A DNA stretch of 64,000 bases from the IMG/VR virus record IMGVR_UViG_3300027977_000006; one strand, 5' to 3'. Within the stretch, counting starts at the first letter, position 1; each line of letters begins with the position of its first letter. Below are positions 3,294 to 58,974 of this stretch, piece by piece. Position numbers and translations under genes: made by a program. The notes under the pieces are model-generated. The model saw only the letters and a list, made by a program, of their open reading frames with translations, was not told where the DNA came from and ran no database searches. The DNA comes from a virus. Lineage: Duplodnaviria > Heunggongvirae > Uroviricota > Caudoviricetes.

Positions 3294-3715
3294 CAATAAT
3301 AACAATAATAACAATGGAAACATTAAAAAAATTTACAAAAACGTGGAATATTAATAATTTTAGTATTCTTACTGATACTGGTTTTAAAAAAATTGATAAA
3401 TTACATGAAACAATTCTTTATGAAGTATACCATTTAAAATTAGCTGATGGAAAAGAACTTAAATGTGCTGATAATCATATTGTATTTGTTACTGAATATG
3501 ATGAAACTACTTTTGAAGCAGTTGGTTTAACTGAAATATTTGTTAAAGACCTAAAAATAGGTTCGTTCGTTATGGTATCTGATAATAATGGCAATTTAGT
3601 AGAATCTGAGGTTTTAGAAGTAAACAATTTGGGTTATAAAGAAATTATGTATGATTTTCAATTAAATGAAAATTCCAACAGACGTTATTTCACAAATGGA
3701 ATTTTATCACACAAC
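3201..3715 (+). other. Intein inserted in the P-loop of clpC. It is divided by a stop codon (3291-3293) and a -1 frame change into IntN (3201..3290, 30 aa) and IntC (3314..3715, 134 aa). The 23-nt spacer is made of AACAATAAT repeats
   Basis: Begins with Cys1, has DT in block A, and ends with HN followed by a +1 Thr. The insertion sits exactly between GK and T of GEPGVGKT. Confidence 0.75.
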
Positions 3716-5518
3716 ACATCAATTGTTGAAGGTCTGGCCCAACTTATTAAAGATGGTGACGCACCTAGAACACTAATAAACAAAAGAATATTCACGTTAG
3801 ATTTAGCATCAATTGTTGCTGGTACAAAATATCGTGGCCAATTTGAGGAAAGAATGAAAGCTGTTTTGGAAGAGTGCAAAGCAAACCCAGACATAGTTCT
3901 TTTTATTGATGAACTACATACGATTGTTGGAGCTGGAAACGCTTCTGGCTCATTAGATGCTTCAAATATATTTAAACCAGCCTTGGCTCGTGGAGAAATA
4001 CAAATCATTGGTGCCACAACATTGGATGAATATCGTGAGAATATTGAAAAAGATGGAGCACTTACAAGACGTTTTCAACAAGTATTGGTAGAAGAGCCAA
4101 CATTAGAAGAAACCAAAACAATTCTAATGAATATCAAAGAAAAGTATGAAAAACACCATAAAGTAACTTATACTGAAGAAGCAATTGACGAATGTGTTAA
4201 ATTATCAGCTAGATATATCATGGATAGGTCGATGCCAGATAAAGCAATTGATGTTTTGGATGAAGCTGGTGCAACAACAAATGTTGTGTTGGAAAAACCA
4301 GAAAAAATTAAAGAATTAGAAATCAAGAAAAGCCAAATCTTAGAAAAGAAAAAAGAGGTGGTTTTAAAACAAAAGTACGAAGAAGCTGCCAAACTTAGAG
4401 ATGAAGAAAGAAAAATTCTAGAGCAACTTCAATCGGCTATGGATGATTGGAATGCAACTCTAGAGAAAAAAACAACTGTGGTTGGTGTAGAACTAATCTC
4501 TGAAGTGGTTTCAATGATGACTGGTATACCTTTGACAAAAATATCAACACAGGAAAGCAAAAGACTAATGAACTTGGATAAAGAACTTACTGGTAAAGTT
4601 ATAGGACAAGATGCTGCCGTTACTAAAGTCGTAAAAGCTATAAAGCGTAATCGTATCGGTATCAAAAATAAAAATAAACCAGTTGGTTCTTTCATGTTCC
4701 TTGGTTCAAGCGGGGTAGGTAAAACTTTATTAGCTAAATTATTGGCTGAACATGTTTATGGTGATGTTGATGCGCTTGTAAGAATGGATATGTCTGAATA
4801 TATGGAAAAACACTCAGTATCCAGAATGGTTGGTGCGCCTCCAGGTTACGTTGGCTACGAACAAGGTGGTCAACTAACTGAAAAAGTAAGAAGAAAACCA
4901 CACTGCGTAATCTTATTTGATGAAATAGAAAAAGCACATGAAGACGTTTTCAACCTGTTACTTCAATTATTAGATGAAGGTCAACTAACTGATGGTTTAG
5001 GTCGTAAAGTAAACTTTAAAAACGCTCTTATTATCATGACATCAAATATTGGTGTTAAAGAAGTTAATTCTTTTGGAAAGAGCTTAGGGTTTGAAACGGC
5101 TGCGACTATTGTTAATGAAGAAAACAAAGCACGTGAGATAATTGAAAAGGCTTTAAAAAAGAAGTTCAGACCAGAATTCTTAAATCGTATTGATGAGGCT
5201 ATAATATTCAGAGGACTAACAGAAGAAGATATACATAAAATCATATATCTTGAAGTTGAAAGCTTAGAAAAACGTTTGAATGAAATGAACTTCAAATTAA
5301 AAATAAGCAAAGAAGCGGTTGAATACTTGGCTAAACAAGGATATGATGAAGCTTATGGTGCTAGACCATTAGCCAGAGCCATTCAACATTATGTGGAAGA
5401 TGCTGTTGCTGATGAAATTTTAAATGGAAACATAAAAGAAGGTGAAACAATTAGTATAGATTTTATTAAAGAAAAAGAAGCCATAATAATAAAGGGTAGT
5501 AAATCTAAATCTAAATAA
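3314..5518 (+). CDS. clpC: ClpC-like AAA+ chaperone, C-terminal part: a 134-aa intein C-fragment ending NGILSHN, then the extein TSIVEGLAQLI..., the rest of NBD1, a short middle domain and NBD2 (second Walker A GSSGVGKT; sensor and arginine-finger regions)
   Basis: The intein TxxH-like block (KCADNHIV) and the terminal block NGILSHN|T are present. The downstream sequence aligns with ClpC NBD1 and NBD2 (VIGQDAAV...FLGSSGVGKT...GYVGYEQGGQLTE...DEIEKAH...GARPL). Confidence 0.8.
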   Translation: METLKKFTKTWNINNFSILTDTGFKKIDKLHETILYEVYHLKLADGKELKCADNHIVFVTEYDETTFEAVGLTEIFVKDLKIGSFVMVSDNNGNLVESEVLEVNNLGYKEIMYDFQLNENSNRRYFTNGILSHNTSIVEGLAQLIKDGDAPRTLINKRIFTLDLASIVAGTKYRGQFEERMKAVLEECKANPDIVLFIDELHTIVGAGNASGSLDASNIFKPALARGEIQIIGATTLDEYRENIEKDGALTRRFQQVLVEEPTLEETKTILMNIKEKYEKHHKVTYTEEAIDECVKLSARYIMDRSMPDKAIDVLDEAGATTNVVLEKPEKIKELEIKKSQILEKKKEVVLKQKYEEAAKLRDEERKILEQLQSAMDDWNATLEKKTTVVGVELISEVVSMMTGIPLTKISTQESKRLMNLDKELTGKVIGQDAAVTKVVKAIKRNRIGIKNKNKPVGSFMFLGSSGVGKTLLAKLLAEHVYGDVDALVRMDMSEYMEKHSVSRMVGAPPGYVGYEQGGQLTEKVRRKPHCVILFDEIEKAHEDVFNLLLQLLDEGQLTDGLGRKVNFKNALIIMTSNIGVKEVNSFGKSLGFETAATIVNEENKAREIIEKALKKKFRPEFLNRIDEAIIFRGLTEEDIHKIIYLEVESLEKRLNEMNFKLKISKEAVEYLAKQGYDEAYGARPLARAIQHYVEDAVADEILNGNIKEGETISIDFIKEKEAIIIKGSKSKSK

Positions 5519-10853: not shown

Positions 10854-12266
10854 TTAGTTTATTAAAGTTTGCGGTAACAAACTTTTTAATTTACTGTAAT
10901 TTTCAGCCCCTATGTCTTGCTCTCTTACGCCTAGTCTGTGTAACGAACCACCATTGCTTTTGTCTAAATAAGAAATTTCAGACGGTATTTCAGTAATTCG
11001 ATTTCCAGTCAGGTTTAAAAAAACAAGGTTTTTAAGTTTCCCAATCTCACTAGGTAATTTTTTTATCTTGTTATCCGTCAATACCAACATCTCAAGATTT
11101 GTTAAATCACCCACAGATGGATGCAAATCAACCAAGCCAGCGCCAGTTATAATAAGCTGGTCTAACGTTTTAAATTTGCTCATATCAGGTAGTTTTGGTA
11201 CTTCTCTTTTCATGATTTTTATTGTTGGTACGTTCTCGTCATACATTTCAAATAAACTTTCAGCAAACCCAAACTTTATTAGAAAATCTAAATATTTGTT
11301 TGTATCTAACCCTTTTTTGTATTCTTTTGCCATTCCCATTAATTCTTCGTAAAAGAAATTGCTCAAGCCTTCACTTTCCACTAAAACATTTTCATAAATT
11401 CCAACGTTCTGAGCGTTTCTTCTGTCCTTCAATTGACCCGTTTCAAAGTGTATTTGAAACAATTCATCCGATTCTTTTGAGAAGAATTTATTGTTTATTA
11501 TGATATAAATATCTGAGTTTTTGCCGTTAGGTTTTTTATAGTTTTGAGTGTAGTTTTTAAACATTCCATTACCTTCTTTTGCAGTACACCAGTTAGCAAA
11601 TTTATCAAATATAACATTTGCCGCAGTTGTCTTTGGAATAAACAATGTAAATTTCCTATCTTTTACTGGTATTTCAGCTTGGCCAGATTCAACAAATTTA
11701 TTTATTGTTCTTTCTACAGCACTAGGTTCCCTTTCAATAAATGGGTCTACAGCATCAAACAATTGAGCCAATGACTTATACTGATTGATATTAGTAGGGT
11801 CGTTTATGTGTTTAAGACTATAGCTAACAGAACACAACTCTTTAAACTTCTTTTTACGCTTGTTGTCTTCAAACATAACTAGATAAGTGTTAGCTTGAGG
11901 TAAATCTTCAGTAACAAATCTAGAAGCTTGTGCAATATCCTTCTCACTACCAGCCTTTATGTATCTGGCGAAAGTGTTTAACATCCACTGCAAATACATC
12001 TTGTTTTCTGTTGGGTCAGCCATAACCATATCCGCAAAAACATTTGAAATAACACTAATCTTTTTTAGCTTTCTACCCTTTTCATTAAATTTCGTAGAAT
12101 CAATAGCAATAAGTTCTCCAGTATTTGTTAAAATTGGAACCCCTTGAAACCCTAAATCTAAAAGATTTTTTAACATTAAATTAGTGGTTTCAGAACCAAT
12201 GTTTTCAAAAACATCAAACTGTTCAGCCAAAAAAGTTAACCTATCTGTTACTGTTGCTTCTTTCAT
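10854..12266 (-). CDS. Leucine-rich-repeat protein: a 350-aa N-terminal region of unknown function plus C-terminal LRRs (LTNLEMLVLTDNKIKKLPSEIGKLKNLVFLNLTGNRITEIPSEI)
   Basis: Canonical LxxLxLxxNxIxxLP repeats. Confidence 0.6.
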   Translation of the reverse strand: MKEATVTDRLTFLAEQFDVFENIGSETTNLMLKNLLDLGFQGVPILTNTGELIAIDSTKFNEKGRKLKKISVISNVFADMVMADPTENKMYLQWMLNTFARYIKAGSEKDIAQASRFVTEDLPQANTYLVMFEDNKRKKKFKELCSVSYSLKHINDPTNINQYKSLAQLFDAVDPFIEREPSAVERTINKFVESGQAEIPVKDRKFTLFIPKTTAANVIFDKFANWCTAKEGNGMFKNYTQNYKKPNGKNSDIYIIINNKFFSKESDELFQIHFETGQLKDRRNAQNVGIYENVLVESEGLSNFFYEELMGMAKEYKKGLDTNKYLDFLIKFGFAESLFEMYDENVPTIKIMKREVPKLPDMSKFKTLDQLIITGAGLVDLHPSVGDLTNLEMLVLTDNKIKKLPSEIGKLKNLVFLNLTGNRITEIPSEISYLDKSNGGSLHRLGVREQDIGAENYSKLKSLLPQTLIN

Positions 12267-35895: not shown

Positions 35896-36207
35896 ATGAA
35901 AAACAACTACTTCTTCGGATGGGAAAACATCAAATGGTTTATCAGAGAAATTGGTAAAATCTATTCAGCTCAAGACTCATTCTTCTCTAAAAAAAGAATA
36001 GAATCTGGTGTAGCTTTCATCATTGCCCAATGGGGTATGATTTATTTCTTCCTTACACATCTTCCAACCCTAACAATGGGTGAATTCCTTTTATGGGCTG
36101 CTGCTGAATTCGCTGTTTCAGGTTATATCATAAACCAAATTCAAAAGGAAAAGATTACTTCAAAACCTGAAGAATCAGAACAAAATCCACAACAACTTAA
36201 CGATTAA
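35896..36207 (+). CDS. hypothetical membrane protein (103 aa; 2 transmembrane segments)
   Basis: ORF with hydrophobic segments. Confidence 0.5.
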   Translation: MKNNYFFGWENIKWFIREIGKIYSAQDSFFSKKRIESGVAFIIAQWGMIYFFLTHLPTLTMGEFLLWAAAEFAVSGYIINQIQKEKITSKPEESEQNPQQLND

Positions 36208-36209
36208 CT

Positions 36210-36660
36210 CAGCTCGGCTGTGGTCGTGTACACAAATGTGTTCACATTACAAAAGGCAAATGCCCAGACCGCAATATAGCAATCTGGGCACCGCTTTGTT
36301 TACATAATGAGTGTGAGCTCCGTTGATTACAAGGTTGCTCATTTCCTTGCAACCAACGGCACTCATTTTTGGCTCAATGGGATGCCTTCCCACCGACTTA
36401 CGCCTCTTGGCAGAGAACCGATTGGTTGAGATAGCGTGGAATCACTGCTACGGTACACAGAGGTTCTCGTCAGAGAGTTACGCATGGAAGTTGCCATCCC
36501 TAACCAAATGCACAAGTCAATGGCTAAAAACGGAACGGCATCGCTGGGGAACATAAGTTCCCCTACAAACAGAGGCTGTATCTTGAACGGAGATTAACAT
36601 GAGAGAGGTGTATTAAACCGACCTACTCAAACCAATATTTTAAAGAACTTCTATTAACTT
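36210..36660 (-). ncRNA. Candidate structured ncRNA 1 (~450 nt): GC-rich (~50%), ORF-free, promoter-driven
   Basis: Promoter at 36667-36703. Long hairpins that need G-U pairs only in the minus-strand transcript: CCGUUGGUUGCAAGG/CCUUGUAAUCAACGG (15 bp), GCCCAGAUUGC/GCGGUCUGGGC (11 bp), GGGGAAC-UUAU-GUUCCCC. Confidence 0.4.
36227..36246. repeat. Palindrome TGTACACAAATGTGTTCACA (copy with 1 mismatch)
   Basis: Shared with 50343-50360 and 50632-50651. Confidence 0.6.
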
Positions 36661-36666
36661 CGATAG

Positions 36667-36703
36667 TACAAAGGTACGAAAACTTTTTGAAACTACCAAA
36701 TCT
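36667..36703 (-). promoter_or_regulatory. Early-type promoter (TACAAAGGTACGAAAACTTTTTGAAACTACCAAAT)
   Basis: Motif match; no ORF downstream. Confidence 0.5.
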
Positions 36704-36719
36704 TTTTGAAACTTTTTTT

Positions 36720-36880
36720 TACCTCATAGAGAGTGGCTACTCCCTCGCATATCATTGGGCATTATTGCTATCGCCAGTGAATCTCTATAAAGTAATTAAA
36801 TCATACCGATAAAGTCTGCTCACGGAATATCGGCAAGTCGTGGCACTTTATGATTTAATGTTTCTCTCTCAATGAACGTA
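36720..36880 (-). ncRNA. Candidate structured ncRNA 2 (~160 nt), ORF-free and promoter-driven
   Basis: Promoter at 36880-36918; only short stop-interrupted frames. Confidence 0.3.
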
Positions 36881-36918
36881 CTGCAAAGGTAGTAAAACTT
36901 TTTGAAACCACCAAATAT
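36880..36918 (-). promoter_or_regulatory. Early-type promoter (CTGCAAAGGTAGTAAAACTTTTTGAAACCACCAAAT)
   Basis: Motif match. Confidence 0.5.
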
Positions 36919-36923
36919 ATTTC

Positions 36924-37199
36924 TTACAATTTGTAAGATTTTTTTATCTGACTTAATTCAAAATCATCAGAAGCATATAAACTAATTTGTTCTACTTTAT
37001 TTGTAACTGGATGAAATCTATGTCTGAATGAATGAATCACCTTATTACCTTGTTTAAAGCTTCCCATATACTGCCAAGCTTCACCTTCATATAAAGCAAC
37101 GTCTGGCTGTTCCAGACCTTCATTTAATGGATGACTGGCCAACCAGTTCCACATATAATCCCATTCAGGACTACCTATTTCTATAATAACAAATTCCAT
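36924..37199 (-). CDS. hypothetical protein (91 aa)
   Basis: ORF. Confidence 0.5.
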   Translation of the reverse strand: MEFVIIEIGSPEWDYMWNWLASHPLNEGLEQPDVALYEGEAWQYMGSFKQGNKVIHSFRHRFHPVTNKVEQISLYASDDFELSQIKKSYKL

Positions 37200-38025: not shown

Positions 38026-38685
38026 ATGACTGAGGAACAAAAAGCAAAAAAGAAAATCACCGATAAAGCTTATCGAGATAGAAATAAAGCTAAAATTAAA
38101 GAACGTGATAAACTTTATTATGAAAATAATAAAGAAAAAATCAAATTAGCGAATAAAGAATACGCTGAAAAAAACAAAGAAACAAAAAAAGCATACAAAG
38201 AAAAATGGGTTAGTGAAAATAAAGACCGAATTAAGAAATACTATGAAGATAATAAAACTGAATTAAAAAGTAAACGTAAAACTTACATAGAAAGAAATAG
38301 AGATAAAATTCGTGAATATGATAGAAATTACCGTAAACGTAAAATGGTTGAAGACCCATTGTATAGGTTAAAAGCCCATCTGAGAATTTTAATAAATAAA
38401 TCATTAAGAGCCAAACAATACGTTAAAAACTCAAAAACTATTGAAATTTTAGGTTGTTCGTATGAAGAGTTTAAACAACACATTGAATCATTATGGCAAC
38501 CATGGATGAATTGGGGTAATAAAGGTTTATACAATGGCCAACCAAATTATGGTTGGGATATTGACCATATTACTCCATTATCAACTGGTATGACAAAAGA
38601 AGAATTAATAAAGTTAAATCATTATACTAACTTACAACCATTATGTAGTTATATTAATAGGGATGTAAAAAGAGATAATATTTGA
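38026..38685 (+). CDS. Free-standing HNH endonuclease, paralog 1 (basic N-terminal K/E/N-rich repeats plus a C-terminal ILGCSYEEFKQHIES…NYGWDIDHITP…LNHYTNLQPLCSYINR HNH core)
   Basis: The D-H…N…N-L-Q-P-L-C HNH motif; paralogous to 39842..40492 and 41499..42194; oriented against the surrounding genes. Confidence 0.6.
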   Translation: MTEEQKAKKKITDKAYRDRNKAKIKERDKLYYENNKEKIKLANKEYAEKNKETKKAYKEKWVSENKDRIKKYYEDNKTELKSKRKTYIERNRDKIREYDRNYRKRKMVEDPLYRLKAHLRILINKSLRAKQYVKNSKTIEILGCSYEEFKQHIESLWQPWMNWGNKGLYNGQPNYGWDIDHITPLSTGMTKEELIKLNHYTNLQPLCSYINRDVKRDNI

Positions 38686-46072: not shown

Positions 46073-46109
46073 CTGCAAAGATAAACAAATTTTTGATACT
46101 ACCAAATTT
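46073..46109 (-). promoter_or_regulatory. Consensus early promoter, the hyper-conserved 40-bp version (CTGCAAAGATAAACAAATTTTTGATACTACCAAATTT)
   Basis: Near-identical copies at 46621, 47190, 47948 and 48580. Confidence 0.65.
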
Positions 46110-50342: not shown

Positions 50343-50360
50343 GTACACAAATGTGTACAT
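50343..50360. repeat. Perfect 18-bp palindrome TGTACACA-AA-TGTGTACA
   Basis: Seen directly. Confidence 0.7.
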
Positions 50361-50631: not shown

Positions 50632-50651
50632 ATGTACACAAATGTGTACAT
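50632..50651. repeat. Perfect 20-bp palindrome ATGTACACA-AA-TGTGTACAT
   Basis: Seen directly. Confidence 0.7.
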
Positions 50652-54236: not shown

Positions 54237-54255
54237 AACTTTTATTTTTGTTTAG

Positions 54256-54327
54256 TAGTCAGGACAAGATTCGAACTTGTATTCTATTACTTCCGTAATC
54301 GCCATTACCATTATCGACCACCTGACT
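54256..54327 (-). tRNA. tRNA-like element (72 nt): 7-bp acceptor stem AGTCAGG/CCTGACT, discriminator A, T-arm ACAAG-TTCGAAT-CTTGT. The anticodon and D region is non-canonical (GTAAT-GGCG-ATTAC-GGAA-GTAAT alternative hairpins)
   Basis: Hand folding; driven by the promoter-like element at 54454-54490. The overlapping plus ORF 54183..54452 is implausible. Confidence 0.4.
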
Positions 54328-58078: not shown

Positions 58079-58117
58079 AGTGCAAAGGTAAGTAAAGTTT
58101 TTGACACTACCAAATTT
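58079..58117 (-). promoter_or_regulatory. Consensus early promoter (GTGCAAAGGTAAGTAAAGTTTTTGACACTACCAAATTT)
   Basis: Motif match. Confidence 0.6.
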
Positions 58118-58974
58118 TATATGGGTAAATTTACTTTTGACAATATTTGATTTGAAACATGAGTATAAATTTCAGTAGTTTTAACACTAGAATGCCCTAG
58201 AATTTTCTGTATTAATTTTAAATCCGTTCCATTTTCTAGAAGATTTGTGGCACAACTATGTCTTAGAGTATGTATATGTCCAGACAATTCAATGTATTTT
58301 TTATACATTTCTTGACAACTTCTTACAGAATATTGATTTGTCATTTGGCCATTAAATAGATATTCAGTTGGTCTATATTCTTTAAAATATTCTCTCAGTA
58401 GATTGAGGACATTTTGTGATAATGGGACCACTCTATCTTTCCTACCTTTAGCATTTTTTATATGAACCAGCATCCTTTTTGAATCAATATCTTCAATTTT
58501 TATATTGACAATTTCAGAAACTCTTAAACCAACTGAATATGTTAGTGTGAGAATTGCTTTGTGTTTAAGATTTTCAATTTTAGATAATCTTTCTTTGATA
58601 AATTCTCCATCAATAACTCTTGGAAGTTTCTTCTCTGATTTTGGTCTGTTAAAATTGACTTTATCATATTTTTTATCAAGCCCGTATTTGTATAAAAAAC
58701 GGATTGCATTTATCACTTGATTCTGTTGAGAAACAGAGGAAAATTGATACTTGTCCAAGTAGGACTGAAAATTTTTGGAATTACAATGAATAATTTGCTT
58801 TTCACCTAAAGATTTAAGAAAGTCTTTGATGTGACTTATGTAATTATCTTTTGTTCTTGGAGAATAGTTTAAGTATATAAACTTTTGCTCACAAATCTTT
58901 ATAATTTTTTGATTCAAAGTATTGATTTTAAAGGGTTTAGGGTATACTTGTTTATATATGATAGTTAGCACCAA
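58117..58974 (-). CDS. int: Tyrosine recombinase / phage integrase family protein
   Basis: GLRVSE, box II HTLRHSCATNLLENGTDLKLIQKILGHSSVKTTEIYTHV (R…H-x-x-R…Y). Confidence 0.8.
   Translation of the reverse strand: MVLTIIYKQVYPKPFKINTLNQKIIKICEQKFIYLNYSPRTKDNYISHIKDFLKSLGEKQIIHCNSKNFQSYLDKYQFSSVSQQNQVINAIRFLYKYGLDKKYDKVNFNRPKSEKKLPRVIDGEFIKERLSKIENLKHKAILTLTYSVGLRVSEIVNIKIEDIDSKRMLVHIKNAKGRKDRVVPLSQNVLNLLREYFKEYRPTEYLFNGQMTNQYSVRSCQEMYKKYIELSGHIHTLRHSCATNLLENGTDLKLIQKILGHSSVKTTEIYTHVSNQILSKVNLPI

Follow-up and report, generated by a model that had tools for sequence, protein, structure and literature searches.

The window (the whole stretch of phage DNA that was analysed, 64,000 nucleotides) has a mean GC content of 0.308 (sd 0.052, 200-nt windows). 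Its GC maximum lies at 36200-36650, where 200-nt windows starting at 36201-36451 reach 0.44-0.51, in agreement with the GC-rich island described in a sequence-only reading of the same DNA. A 103-aa gene converges on this island from the plus strand. On the minus strand the island is entered by two leftward promoters, which had been placed at 36667-36703 and 36880-36918 and were recovered as consensus matches at 36669-36700 and 36884-36915. The motif involved, TTTG-N17-21-TAnnTTTG, is the Bacteroidota housekeeping promoter; the window contains 59 copies of it where 6.3 would be expected, and these mostly precede small minus-strand genes. Promoter P1 is kept in all homologues of the locus, as is promoter P2 together with its leader. 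An HNH/endonuclease VII-like gene lies 1.1 kb from the island; the match is weak, and in other lineages the gene and the RNA do not go together. The features of the locus are collected in Table 1.

Table 1. Features of the island and its surroundings, in order of position in the window.
Feature	Position	Strand	Remarks
Convergent 103-aa gene	35896-36207	+	
Palindrome GTACACAAATGTGT	36226-36245		Between terminator and convergent 103-aa gene; kept in all homologues
Large structured ncRNA	36250-36662	-	~410 nt; z = -5.17; ~15 distinct homologues; no conserved ORF; no Rfam match
Intrinsic terminator hairpin	36256-36294	-	From terminator scan; followed by UGCCUUUUGU (U-rich tail) to ~36250
Arm Pc	36308-36365	-	Outer stem plus 15-bp inner stem (36320-36359)
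Pc 3' bulge GCUCA	36314-36318	-	
Pc apical loop UGAGC	36337-36341	-	
Core, three-way junction	36371-36420	-	50 nt, nearly invariant; P0, Pa, linker and Pb
P0 (GGU/GCC)		-	In core
Pb (UCGGUGGGA-AGGCA-UCCCAUUGA)	36374-36396	-	In core; 9 bp, invariant loop AGGCA
Core linker CGUAAG	Between Pa and Pb	-	
Pa (UCUCU-GCCA-AGAGG)	36403-36416	-	In core; 5 bp, variable tetraloop
Long-range helix P1, 3' strand (AACCAAU)	36421-36427	-	Partner of 36630-36636
Variable multi-hairpin central domain	36428-36629	-	~200 nt, enclosed by helix P1; structure partly resolved
Hairpin GCCGUUCC...GGGAUGGC	36493-36539	-	In central domain
Hairpin GGGGAAC-UUAU-GUUCCCC	36546-36563	-	In central domain
Long-range helix P1, 5' strand (AUUGGUU)	36630-36636	-	Pairs with 36421-36427; recovered by RNAalifold
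Promoter P1 (TTTGGTAGTTTCAAAAAGTTTTCGTACCTTTG)	36669-36700	-	Bacteroidota consensus match; predicted start near 36662
Upstream cassette (the ~160-nt RNA proposed earlier)	36712-36879	-	Leader, 63-nt module and second hairpin, with an A-run at the end
Second long hairpin of upstream cassette	36722-36792	-	
63-nt Y-shaped module	36796-36858	-	Conserved; hairpin loop GUGAGC, with UGAGC at 36818-36822
Leader ACGUUCAUUGA	36869-36879	-	Common to all upstream cassettes
Promoter P2 (TTTGGTGGTTTCAAAAAGTTTTACTACCTTTG)	36884-36915	-	Bacteroidota sigma-A type; predicted start near 36877

From the start expected for promoter P1 (~36662) and the U-tailed hairpin at 36294-36250, a large transcript running from ~36662 to ~36250 is predicted. 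These ends, derived from the two signals, shorten the ~450 nt that had been proposed for the large RNA to ~410 nt. The three hairpins listed in the earlier reading were all located on the minus strand: the 15-bp hairpin is the inner stem of arm Pc (36320-36359), the 11-bp hairpin GCCCAGAUUGC/GCGGUCUGGGC sits within the terminator (36256-36294), and GGGGAAC-UUAU-GUUCCCC falls at 36546-36563. Homologues of types B, C and D carry equivalent terminator hairpins of other sequence.

The island had been described as having no credible ORF, and this description held. Its ORFs are short (36-77 aa), overlap one another, lie on both strands, and gave no match in a Pfam search. Across the homologues no ORF is conserved: each frame contains 3-15 stops, none is open in all homologues, and none was opened by any of the single stop-codon reassignments, all of which were tried on the homologues. 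Close relatives differ by insertions or deletions of 1, 2 and 4 nt, which are not multiples of three. By comparison with shuffled sequences, the minus-strand RNA of 36205-36670 is strongly folded (MFE -160.6 kcal/mol, z = -5.17; 0 of 100 shuffles equally stable), and the plus-strand fold of the same interval has z = -3.43. It had also been argued that the hairpins need G-U pairs and that the RNA must come from the minus strand. In the modelled helices G-U accounts for ~16% of paired cells (our tally from the covariation alignment); because each such pair is an A-C mismatch on the opposite strand or in DNA, the minus strand is the RNA strand, and the orientation of the promoter and terminator agrees with this.

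It is extremely improbable that the region is a DNA-level element (an origin of replication, or a site of packaging or recombination) or a protein gene that is very small or decayed. The many inverted repeats and the conserved palindrome nearby would suit such an element, but the dependence of the helices on G-U speaks against it, as do the promoters and terminator that bracket the region. A short frame does run through the core, with two substitutions that are synonymous; it has no start codon in homologue L236, however, its upstream (N-terminal) part is unrelated or frameshifted among homologues, and neither codon reassignment nor Pfam rescues it. The stretch ~36250-36662 (minus strand) is the gene for a structured RNA that works as RNA, and is neither an mRNA nor a DNA-level element.

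The large RNA is built, in order, of a conserved leader, helix P1, the core, arm Pc, an A-rich linker and the terminator, with two extra hairpins in type B. Stems of the central domain persist between lineages through compensatory changes and indels; thus GGGGAAC/GUUCCCC is exchanged for GGGAAAC/GUUUCCC, and GCCGUUCC/GGGAUGGC for CCCUCCC/GGGAGGG. In the compact homologue L236 the whole ~200-nt central domain is swapped, exactly at helix P1, for a single 30-nt hairpin, and the extension of that helix is changed from GAG/CUC to GAUAA/UUAUC. The domain inside the long-range helix is fast-evolving and dispensable. The core keeps 94-100% identity in every lineage, beside flanks that are unalignable. 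Its only variable paired positions, in Pa, are filled by U-A, U-G or C-G, and most variants, folded independently, are also predicted to form the three-way junction. A pseudoknot between the GGCA of the Pb loop and a downstream UGCC was considered and rejected, the downstream element being lost in type B (UGAC).

Homologous large RNAs were found in related uncultured phages as ~15 distinct sequences of ~360-510 nt, L236 being ~360 nt. Two IMG/VR contigs with the element came from a 15-mer scan together with a search by the neighbouring 85-aa protein, and two more carriers came from scanning metagenomes for the core. The convergent 103-aa gene has many close protein relatives, whose contigs supplied ~20 further loci. 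Among the 85 matches of the IMG/VR 15-mer scan, all were due to chance except one true relative, and a metagenome match to the core in L238 was likewise attributed to chance. When 185,579 species-representative genomes of bacteria and archaea were scanned for the core, only two chance matches in unrelated sequence were returned. The 15 kb surrounding the island had no near match in INPHARED, where a 54-nt match proved to be promoter sequence. Neither a covariance model of core and Pc (R1) run on 1.08 Mb of related phage loci nor a search by way of the other flanking gene (91 aa) added members to the large-RNA set. Where the 103-aa protein is at most ~73-80% identical, its gene runs directly into another gene and the RNA is missing. 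The 103-aa gene is widespread without the RNA. The gene upstream of the RNA varies among lineages, and only the 103-aa gene is conserved across them. The large RNA is clade-specific.

For model R1 we combined four type A sequences with a structure of our own drawing; every one of the 20 loci carrying the RNA aligns to it, with scores of 76-140 bits. Covariation was tallied over 12 distinct rows and 38 modelled pairs, with 500 column shuffles. In the alignment used (A5), which was fitted to the model, so that pairing counts are inflated, and which samples a narrow clade with four or five module types, standard pairs fill 96.7% of the cells, against 83.6% in column shuffles, none of the 500 matching the observed figure, and no more than 52% when partners are slid; both sides have changed in 18 of the 38 pairs. 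All 15 pairs of the Pc inner stem covary, because four unrelated stem sequences, each complementary within itself, fill this position. When single sequences of the four Pc types are folded independently, they return this same architecture and place UGAGC in the loop and GCUC in the bulge. As judged from these sequences, the homologues point to selection at the RNA level.

The comparison with Rfam that the sequence-only reading had proposed was made with cmscan and the 4227 families of Rfam 15, using the gathering score for the whole window and E <= 10 for narrower inputs. No family reached the gathering score in the window, and at E <= 10 nothing relevant was found in the island, in L087, in compact L236 or in the core alone; neither a housekeeping RNA nor any other family was recovered. 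The covariance models of GOLLD and ROOL gave no match in the window, the island, L087, L236 or the core. In the island ARAGORN predicted neither a tRNA nor a tmRNA, and it found no tmRNA anywhere in the window or in L086/L087; a tmRNA was rejected on this result and on the Rfam search. A full-text literature search for the core sequence found nothing. A hammerhead was dismissed because the CUGACGAG stretch is not conserved, reading CUGACCAG in L239. For HEARO/omega RNA, retron msr-msd and other protein-guided RNAs there was no Rfam match, and the adjacent ORFs are without IscB/TnpB or reverse transcriptase domains. Membership of the phi29 pRNA family was set aside on the lack of an Rfam match, on the genes of the window (ClpB-like, integrase and others) and on the Bacteroidota-type promoters.

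That the RNA is a highly divergent member of a known family missed by the models (GOLLD, ROOL, RNase P RNA, tmRNA, group I intron, 6S or HEARO/omega) is very unlikely. Its size, phage origin and tRNA-island context would suit GOLLD or ROOL, and one weak group I intron match was obtained (11.2 bits, E = 9.7). This match, at 36551-36803, however, runs across promoter P1 and leaves out the conserved core. The RNA possesses a promoter and a terminator of its own and lacks flanking exons or tRNA halves; nothing else emerged from cmscan of the window, L236 and the core, nor any tmRNA from ARAGORN. Since the homologues covary and no Rfam family matches, the earlier suggestion of a novel structured RNA, as opposed to a decayed gene, was upheld, and we regard it as very probable that the island encodes a genuine, selected, structured ncRNA of a class not described before.

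Besides the large RNA, which stood, the sequence-only reading had proposed a second RNA of ~160 nt upstream of it. As an independent, well-folded molecule this second RNA was not borne out: the interval is a mosaic cassette whose fold is weakly better than shuffles (z = -1.9 for the unit alone). It lacks a terminator of its own in the window, so transcripts from promoter P2 probably read into the large RNA. The second hairpin of the cassette is missing in L236, L239 and L242, and neither ARAGORN nor the Rfam tRNA model found a tRNA at 36712-36879. In relatives the same promoter and leader drive a canonical tRNA-Met (CAT) in L259, L261 and L253, with scores of 66-75 bits, and tRNA-like genes of 82-109 nt in L250, L253 and L263. 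In L087 a tRNA-like unit with a canonical T-arm occupies the cassette slot, and a tRNA-Met lies ~190 nt upstream. The tRNA-like gene of the window at 54255-54327, which had been noted as an element 18 kb away, belongs to the same family as the tRNA-like cassettes of these relatives. The tie to tRNAs is far closer than the sequence-only reading could show. The locus is an array of promoter-leader cassettes that recombine and whose cargo is tRNAs, tRNA-like RNAs or other folded RNAs; the large RNA is its terminal cassette, the array being closed by the intrinsic terminator. A phage tRNA island can thus be built of repeated promoter-leader cassettes whose cargo is swapped by recombination, which bears on why phages carry tRNAs and on the role of ROOL/GOLLD-type RNAs beside them.

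The leader shared by all upstream cassettes would give a substrate to a ribozyme or RNA-processing cofactor of the array, for example one that trims this leader off the cassette RNAs. The core segment GACGUAAGUCGGUGG bears a loose likeness to GAGGAAAGUCCGGGC, the CR-I of RNase P. However, no RNase P or other ribozyme family matched at E <= 10. The core has no downstream complement to AAGUCGGUGG, so a CR-I/CR-V P4 cannot be drawn; no downstream segment forms a P4-like helix with the core, and the sole similar segment, AAGCGGUG, has the same sense. RNase P RNA was rejected on these grounds, and host RNase P should in any case be enough for tRNA processing. A catalytic or processing role of this kind is highly improbable.

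The nearest RNAs in kind are ROOL (~580 nt) and GOLLD (~800 nt); the island RNA is shorter than either (~360-510 nt), has no detectable homology to them, is built on a distinct three-way junction, and comes from phages that are of Bacteroidota type as judged by their promoters. It is likewise large, multi-hairpin and phage-encoded, it lies in or next to tRNA islands, and it joins a conserved region to a variable, partly dispensable one. In L253, L259, L261, L250, L263 and L087 it is phage-encoded and stands beside tRNA or tRNA-like genes, as is expected of GOLLD and ROOL. Both of these are large phage RNAs found near tRNA islands, and both form RNA-only cages (PMC12286853). The tRNA-Met that forms the preceding cassette in L259 and L253 parallels GOLLD env-38, which lies downstream of a Met-tRNA (PMC12286853). 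ROOL (J6/8-L8) and GOLLD (L20-J13/15) each have a hairpin loop that pairs with a junction; these pairings, first seen by covariation, are intermolecular bridges (PMC12286853). The island RNA also has a conserved complementary hairpin loop and internal loop or junction, and it may oligomerise through them. The island RNA is not a member of the ROOL or GOLLD families. It represents a new class of large phage-encoded structured RNA, nearest in kind to these two and confined to a narrow phage clade.

Two further phage RNAs offer partial parallels. The rnaC and rnaD of T4 (stable RNA species 1 and 2) are non-tRNA species of ~120-140 nt that lie in the T4 tRNA cluster, are co-transcribed with it and are processed like tRNAs. 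Compared by description only, they resemble the island RNA as non-tRNA RNAs in a phage tRNA cluster and differ from it in that the latter is ~410 nt with its own promoter and terminator. The pRNA of phi29 carries a complementary hairpin loop and bulge loop held apart by a helix, through which molecules join hand in hand into an intermolecular ring; its stem sequences drift and its structure is kept. It is 120-174 nt long and is known only from phi29-like podoviruses of Bacillus, where it docks on the portal. The likeness to the island RNA is limited to loop-bulge complementarity, an analogy of mechanism, and nothing ties the island RNA to packaging.

This complementarity resides in arm Pc. The core and Pc together measure 110-114 nt in all types in spite of the stem replacement. 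The apical loop contains UGAGC in every type and the 3' internal loop contains GCUC in every type (AGCUCA; GGCUCU in type B). The UGAGC loop and GCUCA bulge are complementary at a constant spacing of 21-24 nt. The probability of being unpaired is 0.93-0.99 for the loop and 0.57-0.90 for the bulge, and the predicted loop-bulge duplexes have energies of -7.5 to -9.9 kcal/mol. Loop and bulge are conserved and do not covary, save for one register shift, from UGAGC/GCUCA to GAGCC/GGCUC, by which type B retains 5 bp. The rigid helix of ~15 bp between them makes pairing inside one hairpin sterically implausible, and since the complementary motifs stand at its opposite ends we infer that they would pair between molecules. 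On the minus strand of 36150-36960 UGAGC occurs just three times. One copy is the Pc loop, one lies in the core and is mostly paired there, and the third is in a hairpin loop of the upstream 63-nt module; 6 bp could form between this module and the Pc bulge (-11.1 kcal/mol).

On this basis the Pc loop of one copy may kiss the bulge of another, and dimers, rings or cages of the RNA would be built up by such contacts; the partner of the bulge may instead be the upstream module, whose hairpin loop displays GUGAGC. The invariant junction would then be a functional surface for a partner or cargo, plausibly related to the co-transcribed tRNAs. That the RNA works by self-association or RNA-RNA docking through this loop and bulge is a tentative proposal, possible though not probable, drawn from the predicted folds. 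Other uses of the same motifs are conceivable: the UGAGC of the core (36372-36376) could be the partner of the bulge in a strained pseudoknot, and UGAGC and GCUCA could be protein-binding sites. Antisense targets within the window did not exceed chance.

A role in binding protein is the basis of a different account, in which the RNA is a monomeric decoy or sponge: soon after infection the junction and the repeated UGAGC loops would bind and sequester a protein of the host or the phage, with the hairpins as scaffold. Such a protein could be, for instance, a nuclease directed at tRNA, a modification enzyme or an RNA chaperone. The strong host-type promoters fit this account, as does the surrounding region of small genes each with its own promoter. 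The core is kept in sequence and not by covariation, and as many as three loops display UGAGC (those of Pc, the small module and the type B terminator). Co-transcription with tRNA and odd tRNA-like genes agrees with such a function, as phages may use these genes against tRNA-targeting defences. A decoy would nevertheless leave the fixed-distance conservation of a loop-complementary bulge unexplained, and no partner protein stands beside the RNA in all lineages, given that the upstream neighbour varies and the 103-aa gene occurs without the RNA. We consider the decoy rather doubtful.

The best explanation of the whole, in our view about evenly balanced between right and wrong, is a terminal RNA of the array that pairs between molecules through the Pc loop and bulge and offers its junction as a surface. 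In its boldest form, which we think unlikely, the RNA would be a third independent class of self-assembling RNA-only phage particle and the first from Bacteroidota-type phages, a ring or cage joined by loop and bulge, with the junction as its working surface, that acts on or carries the co-transcribed tRNAs and tRNA-like RNAs. RNA quaternary assemblies would, if this were true, be a recurrent accessory of phage tRNA islands and not a curiosity of two families. Large structured RNAs without an assigned function are rare, and the few that are known each gave new biology or a new RNA architecture. The present RNA has two assets for such work, the compact ~360-nt version in L236 and the sharply defined invariant junction, and the five-base loop motif with its complementary bulge makes self-association experimentally tractable.

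Two minor observations concern the wider surroundings of the array. The search with the 91-aa flanking gene turned up another tRNA-like array, in L276. The palindrome beyond the terminator has perfect copies at 50343-50358 and 50634-50649 in the window, and it also closes the cassette array in L276.

The 103-aa gene, which is convergent with the large structured RNA, encodes a membrane-like product. In three more distant large phages (L201, L218 and L220), 9-19 tRNA genes are arrayed directly upstream of its homologue, and the gene is therefore repeatedly tied to regions of tRNA genes, including in loci that lack the large RNA.

In the tRNA-like gene of the window, identified with ARAGORN, the acceptor stem (GUCAGG.../...CCUGAC) and the T-arm are normal, but the anticodon loop is abnormal. 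The gene shares its family with the tRNA-like cassettes adjoining the large RNA in the related phage loci L250, L253 and L263, where the matches to the tRNA model (82-109 nt) contain long insertions separating the D-arm from the T-arm. These genes of the relatives could represent tRNAs with introns, class II-like tRNAs or decoys. The L253 locus also has a hairpin of approximately 130 nt joined upstream of a tRNA-Met. A different tRNA-like array was found on a 233-kb phage contig (L276:3280-4100), in which a homologue of the 91-aa gene, the other neighbour of the large RNA, is followed by a promoter and then by a GC-rich region of approximately 800 nt (GC fraction 0.41-0.48) that contains tRNA-like genes and additional folded sequence. 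This folded sequence gave no match to model R1, the covariance model of the core and arm Pc of the large RNA, and the region may hold another unclassified RNA.

The L276 array ends (at approximately 3920-3935) with the palindrome GTACACAAATGTGTAC, a 16-bp sequence of which two perfect copies are present in the window (50343-50358 and 50634-50649), both within the gene-poor region at 49.5-50.7 kb. A third copy, with one mismatch, is located at 36228-36242, just past the terminator of the large RNA, where the palindrome is conserved in all homologues. It looks like either a bidirectional stop signal or a site to which a DNA-binding protein attaches as a dimer.

On the minus strand of the window, the region from approximately 27000 to 49000 carries dozens of small genes, each with its own near-consensus Bacteroidota promoter (TTTGG...TATCTTTG), and several of these promoters are almost identical repeats (e.g., those at 46076, 46624, 47193, 47951 and 48583). 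Taken together, these sequence features suggest a cassette-like early region that arose through duplication.

Coordinates of tRNA-like genes in the window and in related loci, and of other genes in the window
Feature	Location	Strand	Remarks
tRNA-like gene	window, 54255-54327	-	ARAGORN call "tRNA-???", anticodon "ga"
tRNA-model match	L250:3597-3705
tRNA-model match	L263:2551-2658
tRNA-model match	L253:3331-3413
ClpB-like double AAA+ protein	window, 3314-5518	+	sub-threshold Hint match close to N-terminus
Leucine-rich-repeat protein	window, 10854-12266	-
HNH/endonuclease VII-like protein	window, 38026-38685	+	1.1 kb from large RNA
Tyrosine integrase	window, 58117-58974	-

Automatic annotation can mask the large RNA as a hypothetical protein, since on the contig shared by L270 and L236 a 73-aa gene (L270:2896-3117) was called within the RNA by the JGI gene caller.
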